DNA of 30,259 nucleotides from positions 1 through 30,259 of the IMG/VR virus record IMGVR_UViG_2718217795_000001. One strand, 5' to 3'. Under the pieces are notes generated by a model. That model saw only the letters and a program-made list of their open reading frames with translations. It was not told the DNA's origin and did no database searches. The translations under genes were made by a program, and so were the position numbers. The DNA is from a virus (Duplodnaviria > Heunggongvirae > Uroviricota > Caudoviricetes). Shown here piece after piece: positions 10,693 through 28,838 of the stretch (position 1 is the first letter of the stretch; each line of letters begins with the position of its first letter).

Positions 10693-11142
10693 TTATTTGC
10701 CGAGGTGCCTGATAATGACGTCTTCAATCATCTGCTCATCGTCGCGGGTGAAACCGAGCAACGGGCGGGCATCGTACTGCACATCCCGGCTGTTGCGGTT
10801 TGGCCGGTCTTTGAGCCCGTACTGATGCACCCGCGCCATGCGCTGCACCTTGCCGGTAAACTCCACCACCGCCGCACTGTCGCTGCCTTTAGCTTTCATA
10901 AAGCGGTTGGTGCGCAGTTTGGCGAACATTTCACGTTTAATCCGACCTTTCTTGCTCCGCACCGGCTGGCGCTTACGCGCGGCATACGGGGTGCCGTCGG
11001 GTGCCTGCTGGCGCTTGATGCGCTGTTGCTGACTGGTACGCAACTTTTTCGCAACCTCAGCCGCCATTTGCCGACATGCCGCCGGTGACAGGCTGGCAAT
11101 CAGACCGGCAAGGCGTTCCTGCAGCGCGGTTAATTCACTCAT
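10693..11142 (-). CDS. S: Tail completion / virion morphogenesis protein S, 149 aa
   Basis: P2 gpS-like sequence; order R-S-V. Confidence 0.85.
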   Translation of the reverse strand: MSELTALQERLAGLIASLSPAACRQMAAEVAKKLRTSQQQRIKRQQAPDGTPYAARKRQPVRSKKGRIKREMFAKLRTNRFMKAKGSDSAAVVEFTGKVQRMARVHQYGLKDRPNRNSRDVQYDARPLLGFTRDDEQMIEDVIIRHLGK

Positions 11143-11611
11143 CCCACTTACTCACCAGTTCGCCGTTAACGTACAGCTCGACCGGGCGCGTCACCGGCTC
11201 AGGCAGCGGCGGCTCAGGGGCATAGCTGACGTGCAGCGCGCCGTCGACCTCTTTGACGAGCGTGCGCTCGGTGAGCCTCAGGCTGATACTGATATCAAGC
11301 GAATCGTCGTTATTGATATCAATAATCCAGGTGAATCCTTTTTCCCGGCCGTCGTCGGTGGTCATAATGTCTGGCTGATGTTCACGCAGCCACGCCTGCA
11401 CCGGCACGAATATCAAATCGAGGTCGCCGGTGAAGTCGGTCACCACCACGTTAAGCACGTACACCTTTTCAAACGACAGCGAGCTCGCCAGCCGGGAATC
11501 GGTATGGCCGTTGTCGGCAAACAGGCGCAGCATATCGGGGTTATTTCGGAGCTGCGGCACGGCGTTAATCAGCGCCTTGCGCAGGCTTTTGTGCTTCTGC
11601 ATCGAGTTCAT
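11135..11611 (-). CDS. R: Tail completion protein R, 158 aa
   Basis: P2 gpR-like sequence; overlapped at its 5' end by the o-spanin gene. Confidence 0.85.
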   Translation of the reverse strand: MNSMQKHKSLRKALINAVPQLRNNPDMLRLFADNGHTDSRLASSLSFEKVYVLNVVVTDFTGDLDLIFVPVQAWLREHQPDIMTTDDGREKGFTWIIDINNDDSLDISISLRLTERTLVKEVDGALHVSYAPEPPLPEPVTRPVELYVNGELVSKWDE

Positions 11612-11855
11612 CCTGACAGTGTTTGACGGTTTTGACCTGTAGCGCGCAGGCGGTCAGCGCGCCCTCAAGACGGCGGATATCCGCGCTCAGGTCGCCATTG
11701 GTTTTCGGGTCACTTCCCGGCATCGGGCAAAGGCTCACCCTCGGGCATCCGCTGACCACAATCACCGGCGCTGGCACAGGCGGTGCGGGTGTGCAGCCGA
11801 CGCACAACATCAGGCAAAGCAGCGTTATACCAGCGGCGAAAGGCTTCATTTTCAT
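11565..11855 (-). CDS. lysC: o-spanin (LysC/Rz1-like outer-membrane lipoprotein), 96 aa
   Basis: Signal peptide ending in Cys (LCVGC) followed by Pro-rich segment TPAPPVPAP; starts inside lysB in another frame and runs into R, as in P2. Confidence 0.75.
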   Translation of the reverse strand: MKMKPFAAGITLLCLMLCVGCTPAPPVPAPVIVVSGCPRVSLCPMPGSDPKTNGDLSADIRRLEGALTACALQVKTVKHCQDELDAEAQKPAQGAD

Positions 11856-12123
11856 TAAGTAACCTCGTTATCGTCTGCTCGCGGCGGCTGGCTTCCTCGC
11901 TAGCCTTTGCGAGCTGTTCGCGCAGAACCACCTGCGCGGATTCATTACGTCTGGCAATCTGACCGGCAACACTGAGCTGATTTTTCAGCATGCCAATCGT
12001 CGTCTTTTGTTCGCTCGCGACGCGGTTTGCTGTCTCAAAGGAGCGGGTTAAATTGCCGTTCTCATGGCGCAACCACAGCAGCCCGAGCACGGACAACACT
12101 AACAGCACGGCTAACACTTTCAT
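11710..12123 (-). CDS. lysB: i-spanin (LysB/Rz-like), 137 aa
   Basis: N-terminal transmembrane helix then charged coiled-coil region; ATGA overlap with endolysin stop. Confidence 0.8.
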   Translation of the reverse strand: MKVLAVLLVLSVLGLLWLRHENGNLTRSFETANRVASEQKTTIGMLKNQLSVAGQIARRNESAQVVLREQLAKASEEASRREQTITRLLNENEAFRRWYNAALPDVVRRLHTRTACASAGDCGQRMPEGEPLPDAGK

Positions 12124-12629
12124 TTCACCCCCTTCAGGCAGTAAGTACGCTCACGCTGGCGTCGATTTTCGAGGCCGGTACTACGCTCCCCGTTGACGTA
12201 CACCCAACGGGTGAGCTGGTCGCATGCCTGCCACCACTGATGACGCTTGATGTAAGAGACCAGCGTAGAGCGACAGGCCGCGCCGGTGCCGACGTTAAAA
12301 GAGAAACTGACGAGCGCGTCGTAAACCGACTGCGGCATGGTGACCGGCACGCAGACCGCGAGACGGCGCTCGGTGTTCAGCACGTCTGCGACCAGATTTG
12401 CCGCCGCTTCGCGCTCGGTGATATCCCGTTTCGGTACCACCCCGGCAGTGTGGCCGATGCCTGACGTCCACACGCCCGCGCTGCACTGGTAAGGTGTCAG
12501 GCGACACCCTTCGAGGTCGGCAATCAGCGCCAGACCGTCAGGCGAGGTATTCAGCAGACGAAAATCAGGCATCAGTGCCGCCAGCGCCAGCACTGCGGCC
12601 ACACTGCAACGTTTAACGATTGAGCTCAC
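12120..12629 (-). CDS. SAR endolysin, T4-lysozyme-like (P21 R / P1 Lyz type), 169 aa
   Basis: GTG start (track); weakly hydrophobic Ala-rich N-terminal segment (SAR-like); catalytic pattern E40-x8-C49-x5-T55 with extra Cys8 and Cys42; C-terminus resembles P21-type endolysins. Confidence 0.85.
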   Translation of the reverse strand: MSSIVKRCSVAAVLALAALMPDFRLLNTSPDGLALIADLEGCRLTPYQCSAGVWTSGIGHTAGVVPKRDITEREAAANLVADVLNTERRLAVCVPVTMPQSVYDALVSFSFNVGTGAACRSTLVSYIKRHQWWQACDQLTRWVYVNGERSTGLENRRQRERTYCLKGVK

Positions 12630-12834
12630 GGGTCACCCCTTTGTCGATTCCCATTTCGGTCAGGTAACGAAAGGTTTTGCGCCGGTACCAGAAATTCACC
12701 GCCGCCGTAAAAATGGCGCACAGACTACCCACATACAGCGCCAGTTTTTCGGGCGACATTGCCCCGAAATACGCCAGCCCAACGGCCAGCCAGTAGGCGA
12801 TAAACGTGGTGATTTTTTCCATACTCAGTCCCAT
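12613..12834 (-). CDS. Class II holin (pinholin-like) with dual-start motif, 73/69 aa
   Basis: Two predicted TM helices and charged C-terminus; N-terminus MGLSM gives two in-frame ATG starts (12834 and 12822) like the S21 71/68 holin/antiholin pair; sits directly upstream of the SAR endolysin. Confidence 0.7.
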   Translation of the reverse strand: MGLSMEKITTFIAYWLAVGLAYFGAMSPEKLALYVGSLCAIFTAAVNFWYRRKTFRYLTEMGIDKGVTRELNR

Positions 12835-13028
12835 AGGTTCAGGGTCTCCGCCGTGGGTGATGTTTCAACGTCTGGCAGGTCAATCGCCGTGCCATGCGGC
12901 AGAATGACGCCCAGCTCAGACAGGCCGGGATTAGCCTGCAGCACCGTCTCGACCACGCCCTCAGTGCGCCCGTAATACCGGACGCAAAGCGCGTCGAGGG
13001 TATCGCCCTGCATCGCGTAGACTTTCAT
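12825..13028 (-). CDS. X: Tail protein X (LysM-like), 67 aa
   Basis: Same length as P2 gpX and closely similar by eye (GDTLDA-CVRYYGRTEGVVETVL motif). Confidence 0.88.
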   Translation of the reverse strand: MKVYAMQGDTLDALCVRYYGRTEGVVETVLQANPGLSELGVILPHGTAIDLPDVETSPTAETLNLWD

Positions 13029-13537
13029 CAGAGCTGGCCCACGATGCAGCGCGGCTTATCCTGCAGGCGCGAGACCGACCAGCGCATATCCCGCCACAGG
13101 TCATCAATGGTGGTTTCGACGCTGTCGGCTTTTTTGTCACCCTTGCCGGTGGCCTCAACCCCGCGATAACGCTCATACAGGGTGGCTGTCGCCATCGCCG
13201 TCACGGCGCTCAGGTAGTGGAAAACACGCACATTCTCGCCGTCGATTTCCTCGGCGTCAGGCACGTCGGCCAGTGTCTTAAACCCGGCGGCAATCTGGCG
13301 CAGCCGGTAGTCGTAAAGCTCTGCATTGGTTTCCGCCATGCCGGTCTTGATGGCGTTGCGCAGGCGCGCATCGGAAACCGTCTGCTCAAGGCGCATCAGC
13401 TCGCGCACCCGCTTCGGATCCACATCAGGGAAAAAGAACGTGTTTTTAATCACTGCGTCGCCCGTCTCCGGTGCTGGAATCACCACGCCCGGTACGTCCT
13501 GCGGTTCGTCGGGCTGATTCAGTATTACTGTCGTCAT
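13028..13537 (-). CDS. L: Head completion protein L, 169 aa
   Basis: P2 gpL-like sequence and size; ATG at 13535-13537. Confidence 0.85.
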   Translation of the reverse strand: MTTVILNQPDEPQDVPGVVIPAPETGDAVIKNTFFFPDVDPKRVRELMRLEQTVSDARLRNAIKTGMAETNAELYDYRLRQIAAGFKTLADVPDAEEIDGENVRVFHYLSAVTAMATATLYERYRGVEATGKGDKKADSVETTIDDLWRDMRWSVSRLQDKPRCIVGQL

Positions 13538-13630: not shown

Positions 13631-14380
13631 TTAACCGGCGGTTTTTACCGCCTTTGGTGGACGCCCGCGCTTTGCCGCCGGTCTGGTGGCAGGTTTGCGC
13701 GTGCGCGGTTTAGTCGTTTTACGGGGCGCGGCATCGGGCTTAGGCTTCAATGCCCGCTCCAGTCGCTCAATCTCTTTGCGCACACCGGCATTGCGGTCGA
13801 GCTGCATTGCGCGCTGAAACTGCGCCAGCGCTTCGGCGTCCTGACCGGCATCGCGCAGGGTCAGGCCAGTCACCTTATGCAGACGAGCGCGCACCATATC
13901 GGGAACGTCAGCACCGTCGGTCAGGCTGAGGGTGGTCAGCAGTAATGCGAGGTCGACAGGCTCACCGGCATCGCGCAGGCGCAGCGCGGCAAGTGCCACC
14001 TCCTCAACCAGCATGTAAGGCGTGGTTCGGCGATGGTTAGAGGTGAGGCCGTATTTCAGCGCGTAGGGCGCAATTTCCAGCGCGCCAGCGATATCACCGG
14101 CATCGAGACGCCACAGCATGACGGTCATGACAATGTCATCCTGCGCACCACGGCCATCAGCCAGCACACCGGCGACCCACGGCGCATAGAACGGCAACAG
14201 CTCGCGCTTTTTCGCGGCTTTCAGTTCGTTTGAACGGATGGTTTTTAACGTGCGACGGTCATCGGCCAGCTTTACCAGCATCTGCTCGTAGGCGGTTGCA
14301 TGGCGCAGCGGGGCTTGTTCCCGCTGCGCGGCTTGAGAGGCCGAGACCCGCATCATGTGACGCTGTGCGGGGCTCGTCAT
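13631..14380 (-). CDS. M: Terminase endonuclease (small) subunit M, 249 aa
   Basis: P2 gpM-like sequence with basic Lys/Arg/Pro-rich C-terminal tail; order O-N-M-L. Confidence 0.85.
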   Translation of the reverse strand: MTSPAQRHMMRVSASQAAQREQAPLRHATAYEQMLVKLADDRRTLKTIRSNELKAAKKRELLPFYAPWVAGVLADGRGAQDDIVMTVMLWRLDAGDIAGALEIAPYALKYGLTSNHRRTTPYMLVEEVALAALRLRDAGEPVDLALLLTTLSLTDGADVPDMVRARLHKVTGLTLRDAGQDAEALAQFQRAMQLDRNAGVRKEIERLERALKPKPDAAPRKTTKPRTRKPATRPAAKRGRPPKAVKTAG

Positions 14381-19788: not shown

Positions 19789-20847
19789 ATGGCAGGTGAA
19801 ACTCAAAATATTTCAGCAATGGCGGAAAAGATATCTTCCGATTTATTTAAGTGGTTCAAGTGGGAGCTTGTTGGGGTAACCAATGAAAACTTTCAGTGTT
19901 TGAAGTCTACGCAACATAAAACAAAGTCTGGAACACACCCGACTGATGTTGTTTTTTCCTATAAGGATCCATACTTAAATCGGACGATTTTTTTAAATAC
20001 AGATTTAAAAAGTTATGTAAAAGGGTCGATAACAGCAACCTCAATGCGAAACGCATTAGTCTCATTGGCTAACTCTATTGATTGCGCAGAAGGTAGCAAG
20101 GAATGGAAGGATAGATACTCTTATCAAAGTGGCTCTTCTGAGGTTAGAGGAATGCTCTTTGTATATAATCATGATGGTGAGTTTGACAGATCGTTCTATG
20201 ATGTGTTTTATCAGTCTTATAATGCAGAAACTGATAAAACAAAACGGGGTATTAACCTTGATAATATTCCTCTAAAACAAGGTCAGAAGATTCATATTAT
20301 TGAGCCGAGAACTATAAATTATTTGCAATCAATAATTACGGACTTGTCTCAACTGAGTCACAATCGAGAATTTCCTTTAGGTAAAAATTACCAGTTCTTT
20401 TACCCAGACCTATCACTTCATAAAGTTAGCGGGTCACCTGAAGAACACCCGGCAACAGTAGAGTTGTTAACGGGGCCTTTTTTGATAATTAAACACAACG
20501 ATGTTAAACATTGTGATGAAGAAACTTTAGAGTGGAAAACAACCTATAAGCATGGTTATGTTATTTATTACAATGGCGAGGGTAATAATGAATTAGAGTT
20601 TGTTTATATTCTTGATACGTTATCAAAATACCAACTCTTGGATGGAAATGAAAAGATAAGAATTAGAATTGTACATCCAAGCATTTATAAAGATGTTCGC
20701 AGTATTTTTATGCGTGCTAAGGAAACATACTGTAGAGAATGGGGTTTCGATGAACATAAAAAAACCATCATTGATGCCATTGATTTTCACCAAGTTGAAT
20801 TTACAAAACCTCACTTCAGTTCTGTTGAGATTGGTTGGGAGCGATAA
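19789..20847 (+). CDS. Cassette gene 1: hypothetical protein, 352 aa, possible PD-(D/E)xK nuclease fold in N-terminus
   Basis: ATG with RBS; ~35% GC; N-terminal pattern E26 ... PTD52-VVF ... IFLNTD72-L-K74 fits a restriction-endonuclease-like core; no Walker A/B. Confidence 0.6.
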   Translation: MAGETQNISAMAEKISSDLFKWFKWELVGVTNENFQCLKSTQHKTKSGTHPTDVVFSYKDPYLNRTIFLNTDLKSYVKGSITATSMRNALVSLANSIDCAEGSKEWKDRYSYQSGSSEVRGMLFVYNHDGEFDRSFYDVFYQSYNAETDKTKRGINLDNIPLKQGQKIHIIEPRTINYLQSIITDLSQLSHNREFPLGKNYQFFYPDLSLHKVSGSPEEHPATVELLTGPFLIIKHNDVKHCDEETLEWKTTYKHGYVIYYNGEGNNELEFVYILDTLSKYQLLDGNEKIRIRIVHPSIYKDVRSIFMRAKETYCREWGFDEHKKTIIDAIDFHQVEFTKPHFSSVEIGWER

Positions 20848-20849
20848 GT

Positions 20850-21974
20850 ATGAAAATCGGTTTGTATAGCGTTAATGACAAAGCTATGTTTGATGCTCTC
20901 AATCAAACAAAGGTGACTCATGAAGACATGAAAAGCCTTTTTTTCAAAAGAGGCACTATTATTTCTAAGGATACAAAACGGAAGACTTTAGCTTTGGATT
21001 TTTCGAAGAACTTCCACGGCTATTATGACTTTGAATATTTATCAGAAATTCTTGGATCTGTAGGGAGAAGAGAGAAAGTATCAATTAATATTGTCAACAG
21101 TGCAATTAGTTTAAGTGATATGGAAGTCACAATAAAATCTATATGTGAAGAATTACAAAAAGAGGGGGATGTAACAAATATCAATTACACCGAGAATGGA
21201 TTTGAGGTGTCAGTAAAATATGTCAAGCTGGATTTTAAAATGAGCGAGTTTCGGCAATCCTCATCTCGCGAGGCTAAAATACAAGTAGAGTTGAATGATG
21301 AGGGAGAGTATATTACGCGCTTCCCTCAGAATGCCAAGGCACATGAGTTTAATGAACTTTTGATTAAAAAAATAAAAGAAACTAATAATGATGAGCCTGT
21401 AAGTCTTGAAGAGATATCGCTTGAAACGGTCAAAGATTCAAATGAACGTAGTCGTTTCTTTAAAGAACTGATCGTTAGTATGCCAAATTACAAATGTGTC
21501 GATGTGTCAGATGTTTATGTCACCCATCCAGTATTAGAGGTTAAAAAACCATCTGAATCTGAAGATGATGAAGATGACTCGGATGAGGATGATGATGCTG
21601 TAATAGACACTGGGTATCATATTTCAAAGGCATCATTGAAAGGAAGGGGTGTCCTTGAATCACCAGAACTGGAAGAGTTATTGGGTAATGGGTTTTACAT
21701 TACAAAGATAATATGGAGTTCGGTAGTCGAAGGTTTTAAAGACTCCGATAAGTATGAATTCGAAGCCCAGTTTGTGGATCCGGATAAATGTAAGCTGTTT
21801 TCTTATCTCGTTCGTGGATGTTATAAATATAAAAAAGTAAATGTGTTTACTAATCGGCAAAATGTGGATAAGGAAAAAGAAAATGTGCTATTATTATCAA
21901 TAGAAAAAACGGCTCGAGAAATCTCTAATAGAATAATATCTTTAAATACTCTCGAGGTAGTCACTGAAAAATAA
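20850..21974 (+). CDS. Cassette gene 2: hypothetical protein, 374 aa, with poly-acidic linker
   Basis: Track start is a TTG at 20835 overlapping gene 1; ATG at 20850 follows GGGAG RBS and lies 2 nt after gene 1 stop. Run SESEDDEDDSDEDDD at nt 21552-21596. Confidence 0.6.
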   Translation: MKIGLYSVNDKAMFDALNQTKVTHEDMKSLFFKRGTIISKDTKRKTLALDFSKNFHGYYDFEYLSEILGSVGRREKVSINIVNSAISLSDMEVTIKSICEELQKEGDVTNINYTENGFEVSVKYVKLDFKMSEFRQSSSREAKIQVELNDEGEYITRFPQNAKAHEFNELLIKKIKETNNDEPVSLEEISLETVKDSNERSRFFKELIVSMPNYKCVDVSDVYVTHPVLEVKKPSESEDDEDDSDEDDDAVIDTGYHISKASLKGRGVLESPELEELLGNGFYITKIIWSSVVEGFKDSDKYEFEAQFVDPDKCKLFSYLVRGCYKYKKVNVFTNRQNVDKEKENVLLLSIEKTAREISNRIISLNTLEVVTEK

Positions 21975-21985
21975 AAGGAGTTGTT

Positions 21986-22657
21986 ATGAAAACAAAATGG
22001 TTTACTGCCAACTTCCCTGCCGGTCTCGATAGGTTATACCAGGCCATCATAAACACGCCTTTTGACAGTGACAAAGGTTGGGGGTTTAGTATTCTTTCAT
22101 ATGAAGATAAGTATATATCTTCAAAATATATTGAAAGGGTTGAGGTAAGCGAAGTAATCATAGACCCCTATGGTAATGAAACTGAGTTTAATCATTTCAA
22201 ATATGTGCAGTTTAACTTTTGGTTTTTTAAAGCTCAAGGCGGTAACTTCATTTTAATAATTGATTCTCCGCCTAGAAGTATCAAGGGTTTTATCTCCAAT
22301 GTGATTAAGGCAACTGAATCCGATTTTAATGTTTCTTATCTTGTGATTCAAATTGATGAGTTTATAAAATTTATCACGCCTCACTTCGAAAAGGTTCAGG
22401 TGCACAAGGCCAAATTAAAGGATTTGACTTTTAGTAAAAATACATCTGGCATTTTAGAACTTGAGTCTTCAAATGACGCGATAGATGAGATGAGAAATAT
22501 TTTTAAAAATGCAAAATTCACGATTGATAAAGTTAAATTGAGTGTTAAATCTAACACTGGCAATGAAACATTAGAAGTGAATTCCAATGGTTCTCTTAGC
22601 TTCTCAGAGGAGCTTTTTGATAAGATATTCTCTGCAGTTGAGCGTTTCACTTTCTAA
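21986..22657 (+). CDS. Cassette gene 3: hypothetical protein, 223 aa
   Basis: ATG 11 nt after gene 2 stop with AAGGAG RBS; AT-rich; no recognisable motif. Confidence 0.6.
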   Translation: MKTKWFTANFPAGLDRLYQAIINTPFDSDKGWGFSILSYEDKYISSKYIERVEVSEVIIDPYGNETEFNHFKYVQFNFWFFKAQGGNFILIIDSPPRSIKGFISNVIKATESDFNVSYLVIQIDEFIKFITPHFEKVQVHKAKLKDLTFSKNTSGILELESSNDAIDEMRNIFKNAKFTIDKVKLSVKSNTGNETLEVNSNGSLSFSEELFDKIFSAVERFTF

Positions 22658-27974: not shown

Positions 27975-28838
27975 ATGAGTTCTGAACTCGATGTTCAGTG
28001 GCGTATAGGTGCATCAAATGGCGTGTTAGAGCGCGTAATGTCAGCCTATGGCGTCAAGATGCAAAAGGATTTAGCTGACCTGTTGGGCATCGCTAAACAC
28101 AGCGTTAGTGGCTGGGTTCAACGCGATGCAATACCCGGCAATGTCATAGTTAGGTGTTGTCTTGATACTGGTGCTGATATCAATTGGCTTGTAAGTGGTG
28201 AGCTTGCAAATGCAAAACATGAGCGAGTCGGTTGCAAGCTAAAGGGCAAAGAACTCTATGACGAGATCATGACGAACGGGGGCAAAACCGTTTTGCGCAG
28301 AATTCTTGATGCTTATGGGTTTACGATGCAAAAAGAGCTTGGTGATTTATTGGGTATTTCTTCCGGCACTATAAGCACTTGGGTCAGGCGTGACTTTTTC
28401 CCGGGCGATGTGGTGGTGACCTGCGCACTTGACACTGGCGTTTCGTTGGAGTGGCTTTCTACAGGCAAAGGCAAGATGCGAGAAGGCAGGGAAAGTGAAT
28501 CTCTTAGCGCCTTAACAGTAAGAAAATGTCGCCTTGAAGCTGGCGAGCTTAAAGATATTGGGCGTTGGACTCCAGACCTTACAATGGTTCCTGAAAACAT
28601 TGATGAATTGATCTTTATTGATGGAGTAGGCGCATCTTGGCTTGTTGATTGTTCTAACTCAAAGATCGGTAATGGTCGTTGGCTTATTGGCATTGATGGT
28701 GCGCTCGATGTTTTTGATGTCATCAGGTTACCAGGTGGAAAGGTCAGGCTTTCAAATAAGTCTGCGGAGTTTGAATGTAATCTTTCAGACATCACACCAT
28801 CAGGTGCAGTGATTTTTACTTTGGAAAAGCATGTTTAA
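27975..28838 (+). CDS. cI: CI-type immunity repressor with tandemly duplicated N-terminal HTH domain, 287 aa
   Basis: Divergent from the early operon; residues 17-75 and 106-164 are ~50% identical copies of a 186-CI-like HTH module; distinct C-terminal domain. Confidence 0.7.
   Translation: MSSELDVQWRIGASNGVLERVMSAYGVKMQKDLADLLGIAKHSVSGWVQRDAIPGNVIVRCCLDTGADINWLVSGELANAKHERVGCKLKGKELYDEIMTNGGKTVLRRILDAYGFTMQKELGDLLGISSGTISTWVRRDFFPGDVVVTCALDTGVSLEWLSTGKGKMREGRESESLSALTVRKCRLEAGELKDIGRWTPDLTMVPENIDELIFIDGVGASWLVDCSNSKIGNGRWLIGIDGALDVFDVIRLPGGKVRLSNKSAEFECNLSDITPSGAVIFTLEKHV

Follow-up and report, generated by a model that had tools for sequence, protein, structure and literature searches.

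Overview of the lysis locus

The window (the whole 30,259-nt stretch analyzed, positions 1 to 30,259 of IMG/VR record IMGVR_UViG_2718217795_000001, Caudoviricetes) was a 186-like prophage of the P2 family (Peduoviridae), and the lysis cassette of this prophage is described here. The late operon was ordered as in P2 and 186, and all lysis-region genes were located on the minus strand: holin, endolysin, i-spanin, and o-spanin (Table 1), the o-spanin gene beginning within the i-spanin gene and extending beyond its 3′ end (overlapped architecture). The endolysin was assigned by homology to the P1 Lyz type of signal-anchor-release (SAR) endolysins, its putative SAR-segment, caging, and catalytic-position cysteines standing in register with C13, C44, and C51 of P1 Lyz. 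A cysteine-regulated SAR endolysin of this type, lysing the host together with a small holin of predicted class II topology, was considered the probable explanation of the cassette as a whole.

Table 1. Positions of the lysis module, its inner features, and the neighboring late genes in the window
Feature	Position	Strand	Remark
Module differing from phage 186	12107-12854		blastn of window versus 186 locus
Class II holin, 73 aa, candidate pinholin	12613-12834	-	ATG at 12834; second in-frame ATG (M5) at 12822-12820
SAR endolysin, 169 aa, GH24 T4-lysozyme-like muramidase, P1 Lyz type	12120-12629	-	PF00959
Putative SAR segment, endolysin C8-P21 (CSVAAVLALAALMP)	12567-12608	-	K6-R7 before it; putative isomerizing Cys8
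Catalytic motif E40-G-C42-x6-C49-x5-T55	12465-12512	-	E40 catalytic Glu; C42 putative caging Cys; C49 catalytic-position Cys
i-spanin (LysB/Rz-like), 137 aa, N-terminal transmembrane helix	11710-12123	-	TIGR03495 phage_LysB, 159.5 bits (cut-off 92.75); phrog_89
o-spanin (LysC/Rz1-like lipoprotein), 96 aa	11565-11855	-	NF038368 P2_Rz1, 128.5 bits; PF23793 LysC
Small terminase	13631-14380	-	
Head completion gpL	13028-13537	-	
Tail protein X (gpX)	12825-13028	-	PF05489, 104.6 bits; context, not lysis gene
gpR	11135-11611	-	
gpS	10693-11142	-	

Exchange and distribution of the holin–endolysin module

The sequence comparison was applied to the window and phage 186 by blastn. The flanking regions were 92.6% identical, homology ended at position 12106 and resumed at 12855, and thus exactly the holin and endolysin genes were exchanged relative to 186, which carried at the same site a PF04550 holin Y (142 bits) and a lambda-R-like P endolysin. 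A tblastn search of the whole window with 186 Y, 186 P, and LysA of Escherichia phage Midge gave no match, the window containing neither a Y/K pair nor LysA. A preliminary description of the locus had proposed a SAR-type cassette rather than the P2 Y/K pair, and the proposal was borne out as to the Y/K pair, which the holin and endolysin genes replaced precisely. The prophage therefore belongs to a 186/P2-like subset in which the holin and endolysin were swapped as one module for an S21/HP1-type holin plus a P1-type SAR lysozyme.

A megablast search with region 11500-13100 recovered Klebsiella phage RCIP0057 (OR532851; 98.5% identity over the full query), Midge (PV287706) and Erwinia phage EtG (96-97%), and a dozen Yersinia pestis phages (95.7%). 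The holin protein was 98.6-100% identical across Midge, RCIP0057, vB_YpM, and EtG and 100% identical in RCIP0057 and the Y. pestis vB_YpM/GCS667 phages, which indicated that the cassette is functional in plaque-forming phages. The endolysin gene was annotated as "SAR-endolysin" in RCIP0057, while Midge carried the annotations "SAR endolysin" (with similarity to P1 lysozyme noted) and "holin class II". The cassette is thus already known, the same genes having been deposited for isolated phages with correct annotation, and its proposed mechanism is that of the textbook P1 Lyz/S21 systems. Midge and EtG contained an additional 143-aa LysA-like "putative antiholin" with multiple transmembrane domains (TMDs) between endolysin and i-spanin (Midge 2121-2552 versus window 12100-12189); this gene was absent from the window, RCIP0057, and 186, and the last ~20 endolysin codons differed accordingly.

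The exchanged module is widespread in Peduoviridae: the same type of holin, followed by a lysozyme displaying the KRC-TMD and EGC...C features, was found in five further genera (Graikaemvirus, Gegavirus, Elveevirus, Entnonagintavirus, and Hpunavirus). Among 5426 complete E. coli genomes, 100 (~2%) carried the cassette, and PGAP gave its genes the names "lysozyme" and "HP1 family phage holin". The 18.6-kDa enzyme has been expressed and tried in spot assays (PMC9902359); a literature search found no paper on the lysis of phage Midge or Eganvirus.

Endolysin family and catalytic motif

The endolysin open reading frame (ORF) had a GTG start preceded 6 nt upstream by AAGGGG, and it overlapped the end of the holin gene by 17 nt. 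The protein matched Pfam PF00959 Phage_lysozyme at 134.9 bits (E 2.6e-39; cut-off 22.3), and its closest solved structures were P1 Lyz 1XJT (E 1.6e-22; also 1XJU) and R21 3HDE (E 4.7e-21), 1XJT and 3HDE being the two structurally characterized SAR endolysins. NCBIfam contained no model naming the window holin or endolysin above cut-off.

The pattern E40-x8-C49-x5-T55 with additional C8 and C42, as previously read from the DNA, was present in full in the translation of the endolysin gene, and the codons were checked by eye: C8 at 12606-12608, E40 at 12510-12512, C42 at 12504-12506, and C49 at 12483-12485. In HMMER and MAFFT alignments (the P1 Lyz query being identical to 1XJT chain A over residues 1-185), C8, E40, C42, C49, and T55 corresponded to P1 Lyz C13, E42, C44, C51, and T57, respectively. 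The alignment with P21 R and P1 Lyz therefore gave a Cys at the catalytic position (C49 = P1 C51) and bore out the Cys spacing parallel to P1 Lyz that had been suggested, C8, C42, and C49 all being in register. The lysozyme of Haemophilus phage HP1 harbored the same three cysteines, while R21 had Val and Asp at the positions of C42 and C49. In the 2005 work of Xu et al., P1 Lyz is said to contain a C44-C51 disulfide in the tethered form and a C13-C44 disulfide after release. The catalytic triad motif has been published as E-8aa-D/C-5aa-T (PMC4640515; also PMC3556154), and a regulatory role has been assigned to the triad Cys of P1 Lyz (PMC3556154).

The endolysin contained four further cysteines: C93, C119, C136, and C164. 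C136 and C164 of the window protein had counterparts in P1 Lyz, HP1 Lys, and R21 alike, and the two may pair in a structural disulfide of the periplasmic enzyme. Two other readings of the N-terminus were rejected: (i) a start at GTG V10, as the AAGGGG Shine-Dalgarno sequence serves the first GTG and K6, R7, and C8 were conserved, and (ii) a lipoprotein signal, as V-K-R precedes Cys8 so that there was no lipobox. The AlphaFold2 model of the endolysin, built on a 45-sequence alignment of relatives 80-96% identical, was unusable (mean pLDDT 47.6; pTM 0.35).

Holin and the size of its lesion

The holin began with MGLSMEK and displayed two hydrophobic stretches at about residues 8-26 (TMD1) and 31-50 (TMD2), with runs at 8-28 and 31-46 as judged by a hydropathy proxy. 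SPEK formed the four-residue loop between them, and the C-terminus RRKTFRYL...KGVTRELNR was strongly basic; the topology predicted from this arrangement is class II (N-in/C-in with two TMDs). It matched phrog_20 "holin" (E 1.6e-22), and S21 (E 1e-32) and HP1 Hol (E 9e-10) matched the same profile region. Against Pfam PF16080 (HP1 holin family, TC 1.E.7) it reached 27.8 bits, below the cut-off of 28.8, while its 51%-identical relative P0183 passed at 39.1 bits. The direct comparison with S21 gave 34% identity by BLASTP (E 2e-4) and, with a 27-sequence holin family profile as the hhalign query, a probability of 76% (E 2e-5); the hhalign comparison of this profile with HP1 Hol was not significant. 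Three family-invariant holin residues, G36, T43, and N47, were paired with S21 G43, T51, and N55 by hhalign, and TMD1 had a lower Kyte-Doolittle value than TMD2 in both proteins (1.30 versus 2.10 in the holin and 0.64 versus 1.72 in S21), the contrast being less extreme in the holin. A small upstream holin with two predicted transmembrane helices and resemblance to S21, as first described, was thus recovered.

The pinholin label attached to it was stronger than this homology allows, as canonical holins, too, can serve SAR endolysins; a pinholin is nevertheless the most likely reading that we infer, because S21 forms small channels (up to 2 nm; PMC6116005) and HP1 Hol, which was required for phage release, killed E. 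coli cells that neither lysed nor released beta-galactosidase (PMC7312051). The HP1 hol/lys pair behaves experimentally as a pinholin plus SAR endolysin (PMC7312051).

The alternative that retained most credit, although unlikely, keeps the endolysin as described and takes the holin for a canonical large-hole class II protein, release of the SAR segment following the collapse of the proton-motive force through any hole. P1 Lyz can be served both by the pinholin LydD and by LydA, and LydA, a canonical class II holin, is its main partner in E. coli (PMC9025707), so a SAR endolysin does not imply a pinholin. Several properties of the holin likewise weighed on the side of a large hole: (i) TMD1 was fairly hydrophobic and aromatic (F, Y, W, Y, F) and less SAR-like than that of S21 (Kyte-Doolittle 1.30 versus 0.64; small residues 43% versus 63%); (ii) it lacked the six Gly/Ser-rich residues of S21 (a 6-residue alignment gap); (iii) S21 G40 and T54 were not conserved; and (iv) there was no match to the Pfam S21 model PF04971, for which the relative P0141 reached 20.8 bits (cut-off 26). 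Against a large hole stood the PHROG common to the holin and S21 and their significant profile alignment, the small-hole behavior of S21 (PMC6116005) and HP1 Hol (PMC7312051) as the only tested members of the superfamily, and the strict pairing of this holin with SAR-type lysozymes across Peduoviridae genera.

Many copies of the window holin in NCBI and UniRef were named "primosomal protein", and others "HP1 family phage holin"; the former name appears to be a propagated mis-annotation.

Conservation of the endolysin cysteines

In the 45-sequence alignment, C8, E40, C42, C49, and T55 were invariant, and K6 and R7 were nearly so. The E-C-C-T pattern was found in 119 of 120 close homologues (80-99% identity), and C8 was kept in 112 of the 113 that were full-length. 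A wider sample was drawn from 50%-identity clusters by taking the 150 best representatives. An N-terminal TMD-like segment was present in 31 of these; every one of the 31 had both motif cysteines, 28 also had a Cys within the segment, and the remaining three looked N-terminally truncated. Among the computational results, this co-occurrence of three cysteines with a TMD was regarded as the strongest argument for a P1-like mechanism.

The same sample also contained observations pointing the other way. Cys occupied the Asp position in ~97 of the 150 representatives, many of which had no N-terminal segment (23 "L-C" and 15 "C-C"), so Cys-for-Asp is a common state of this lysozyme subfamily, soluble homologues included; the substitution highlighted in the preliminary description was indeed present at C49, but it was nothing special, the published motif itself allowing D or C. 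The C-x6-C pair, too, occurred in at least 15 homologues without any N-terminal segment, and the two cysteines alone were thus no proof of caging.

These observations would suit a SAR endolysin in which the cysteines are non-regulatory, control being exerted purely by conformation or steric effects on the pattern of R21, with Cys49 as a tolerated replacement of Asp. R21, which has none of these cysteines, is reportedly regulated all the same (Sun et al. in 2009, as cited in PMC6116005). Such a reading was considered improbable, since it leaves aside that the three-Cys arrangement accompanies the N-terminal TMD (31/31 C-C; 28/31 with TMD Cys) and that the register is exact with the P1 Lyz residues for which isomerization is structurally shown (1XJT/1XJU; PMC3556154).

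One relative, P0079, carried both C8Y and C42G, and its use as a natural covariation in support of caging was rejected, the copy being either in decay or rich in errors. It came from a 1710-bp Logan contig (SRR17222378), in which the endolysin had C8Y, C42G, and R24C, gpX was truncated (…NL*), and the holin lacked both start codons.

N-terminal segment of the endolysin

The endolysin N-terminus read MSSIVKR-CSVAAVLALAALMP-DFR, i.e., two basic residues (K6 and R7), 14 uncharged residues, and then D22. SAR endolysins typically carry basic residues, one or two in number, at the N-terminus (PMC9239132), a number matched by K6-R7. The segment was rich in Ala, Leu, and Val, contained no Gly, and had a Kyte-Doolittle mean of 2.2, with small residues (A+G+S+T) making up 43% of it versus 55% in P1 Lyz and 65% in R21. 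By our own count, the uncharged stretch comprised 14 residues versus 20 in P1 Lyz, 23 in R21, and 18 in HP1 Lys, the last having been counted as 16 elsewhere (PMC7312051).

The weakly hydrophobic N-terminal segment of the preliminary description was found with one qualification: an uncharged segment was present, but it was short and Ala/Leu/Val-rich instead of Gly/Ala-rich like that of P1 Lyz or R21. Its length and its enrichment in Leu, Val, and Ala beyond typical SAR domains count against a SAR assignment, as with these features it resembles the h-region of a signal peptide as much as a SAR domain. The segment would be short for a stable anchor; its size fits a releasable segment and also an h-region.

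Signal peptidase follows the -3/-1 rule, i.e., it needs a small-x-small site. The sole AxA (A15-L16-A17) was located inside the hydrophobic core and Pro-Asp-Phe followed the core, so cleavage looked unlikely, and retention of the segment in the mature endolysin was argued from the invariant Cys8. A cleaved Sec signal peptide, yielding a soluble periplasmic lysozyme restrained otherwise (e.g., by dependence on the proton-motive force, as suggested for fOg44 Lys and other secreted endolysins), was accordingly held to be very improbable. In its favor, the 14-residue run after a basic n-region has h-region size, A15-L16-A17/A18 is a possible site, and SignalP assigned a signal peptide to the corresponding 16 residues of HP1 Lys, although HP1 Lys behaves like a SAR endolysin (PMC7312051). 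Against it, the run ended ...A-L-M-P-D-F and a polar c-region with a small-x-small site was lacking, Cys8 was invariant and in register with P1 C13, 28 of the 31 TMD-bearing homologues kept a segment Cys, a pattern not readily expected of a segment that is removed, and the nearest solved relatives, P1 Lyz and R21, are uncleaved SAR proteins (PMC6116005).

Start codons of the holin gene

The gpX frame ended ...CTA TGG GAC TGA, and the overlapping holin frame read ATG GGA CTG AGT ATG GAA AAA. The first holin ATG was thus formed by the Leu-Trp codons of gpX, the second was located 2 nt after the gpX stop, and both are placed for termination-reinitiation. Holin M1 and M5 aligned with S21 M1 and M4, which agreed with the MGLSM dual-start motif proposed earlier. 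The rest of that proposal was not supported. An added basic residue in the extension is what makes the S21-71 and lambda S107 antiholins, whereas the G-L-S extension of the window holin had no Lys/Arg, and none of 74 homologues had Lys/Arg at the extension. M5 was not conserved either: it was replaced by Leu (CTG) in P0141, by Val (GTG) in others, and, in P0173 with its GTG first codon, by Thr (ACG), so only the first start is usable in these relatives. P0141 (MGLSLEK) was the most widespread holin relative, indexed in >3000 blocks of the assembly collection.

In more distant relatives from Klebsiella and Cartapus, the gpX-derived ATG was out of frame and the holin started at the M5-equivalent Met, so the M5 position is the ancestral start, and M1 arose in this lineage as a by-product of the overlap between the two genes; the starts at the M5 position may be compared with S21-68 MDKIST and HP1 MNSKIDS, and the Midge annotators also started the holin at the second Met. 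Across the lineage, some relatives had the upstream start only (ATG/GTG), some had the ancestral Met only, and the window had both, so the holin start may have shifted onto the gpX end that overlaps it. An S21-like dual-start antiholin is not supported by the residues of this sequence. A charge-independent variant, in which 73- and 69-aa isoforms would differ by an uncharged 4-residue extension slowing TMD1 externalization, was viewed as a long shot; if true, its partner would be an endolysin of the P1 type whose SAR segment, at 14 residues, is among the shortest seen.

Two side observations concerned the relatives. First, Yersinia enterocolitica phage vB_YenM_31.17 (NC_070918; locus 1201-1215) had the extension MGLK-MEK, i.e., two Mets plus a Lys, upstream of the annotated start; the window lineage had S, T, or N at the position of this Lys, and a classical dual start may exist in the sister lineage of vB_YenM_31.17. 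Second, P0141 was located in an apparently truncated P2-like remnant (complete enterobacterial chromosomes CP082147, CP192609, and CP163007), in which gpA and a DinI-like gene directly abutted gpX–holin–lysozyme–LysC–gpR–gpV and the head genes were missing.

Proposed lysis pathway

The P1-type reading of the cassette would proceed as follows. The endolysin would be exported by Sec and tethered to the inner membrane through K6-R7 plus C8-P21, its lysozyme domain facing the periplasm, and by analogy with P1 Lyz the tethered form would be held inactive by a Cys42-Cys49 disulfide. The class II holin (73 or 69 aa) would accumulate until, at a set time, it depolarizes the membrane; the holes would most likely be small pinholes like those of S21. 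The SAR segment could then leave the bilayer, and the Cys8 thiol would attack the Cys42-Cys49 disulfide, freeing Cys49 and giving the active enzyme; the LysB/LysC spanin would complete lysis at the outer membrane.

The value of this assignment is mainly one of correct annotation, and it makes no open question newly testable. Recombinant use of the endolysin would need the N-terminus to be removed or the Cys residues to be handled.

Other features of the prophage

Elsewhere, the window contained genes for gpD, tail and baseplate, capsid, terminase, portal, replication protein A, regulators of the CII-like and CI-like kinds, and an integrase. The 96-aa o-spanin ORF had an N-terminal signal MKMKPFAAGITLLCLMLCVGC, and its NF038368 match spanned residues 4-87. 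The Midge and RCIP0057 records annotated the o-spanin only as a 52-aa product from an internal Met without the signal (Midge locus 1566-1724), which is probably a mis-call.

Three co-directional ORFs (352, 379, and 223 aa) were located at 19789-22657 (+) between portal and replication gene A, a P2-type cargo hotspot. They matched PADLOC PDLC03004/5/6 "Hp1/Hp2/Hp3" (E 3e-65, 6e-36, and 5e-8, respectively) and had no Pfam match; they are probably anti-phage defense cargo. The longest ORF of the CI-type repressor (27975-28838, +) encoded 287 aa, with two stretches matching the Phage_CI_repr helix-turn-helix domain, and the CI of phage 186 has ~190 aa; this ORF has either an over-extended start or a duplicated N-terminal domain.

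Comparison with known lysis systems

The cassette was compared with the prototype SAR endolysin P1 Lyz (1XJT inactive; 1XJU active), which is activated by disulfide isomerization. The window endolysin was 34% identical to P1 Lyz over the full length and belonged to the same GH24 fold family, and the two shared N-terminal basic residues, a Cys-bearing uncharged segment, and E-G-C-x6-C-x5-T. They displayed three differences: (i) the hydrophobic segment had 14 residues and no Gly in the window endolysin versus 20 residues in P1 Lyz; (ii) the 11-residue insertion after the NVG motif, found in the P1 and HP1 lysozymes, was absent from the window endolysin; and (iii) the window endolysin gene was located directly downstream of its holin gene in a P2-type late operon, while P1 lyz is unlinked to lydA (PMC9025707). 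R21 was 36% identical to the window endolysin, but it had Asp instead of the catalytic-position Cys and none of the three regulatory cysteines.

S21 and the window holin, both of class II by prediction for the latter, had two in-frame Mets at equivalent places; SMDKISTGIAY of S21 aligned with SMEKITTFIAY, and the SP loop and the TMD2 residues G-S-L...T...N were common to both. The S21 extension MKS contained a Lys, while the window extension MGLS had none, and the window TMD1 was 6 residues shorter and less Gly/Ser-rich.

In HP1, a P2-family phage of Haemophilus, a small holin gene was likewise placed immediately upstream of, and overlapping, a lysozyme gene whose product had a Cys-bearing uncharged stretch (16 residues) and EGC...C...T. 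HP1 Hol and the window holin shared ~18% identity and belonged to the same PHROG, the window holin being nearer S21; HP1 hol has no dual start (PMC7312051), while the window holin had two in-frame Mets.

RCIP0057, Midge, Yersinia vB_YpM, and EtG carried the same cassette as the window, with 95.7-98.5% DNA identity. The Y/K pair of 186 and P2 occupied the same late-operon position (gpX to LysB), but its proteins were unrelated to the window holin and endolysin: the 186 holin belonged to PF04550 (3 TMD type), and the 186 endolysin was lambda-R-like and without an N-terminal hydrophobic segment.

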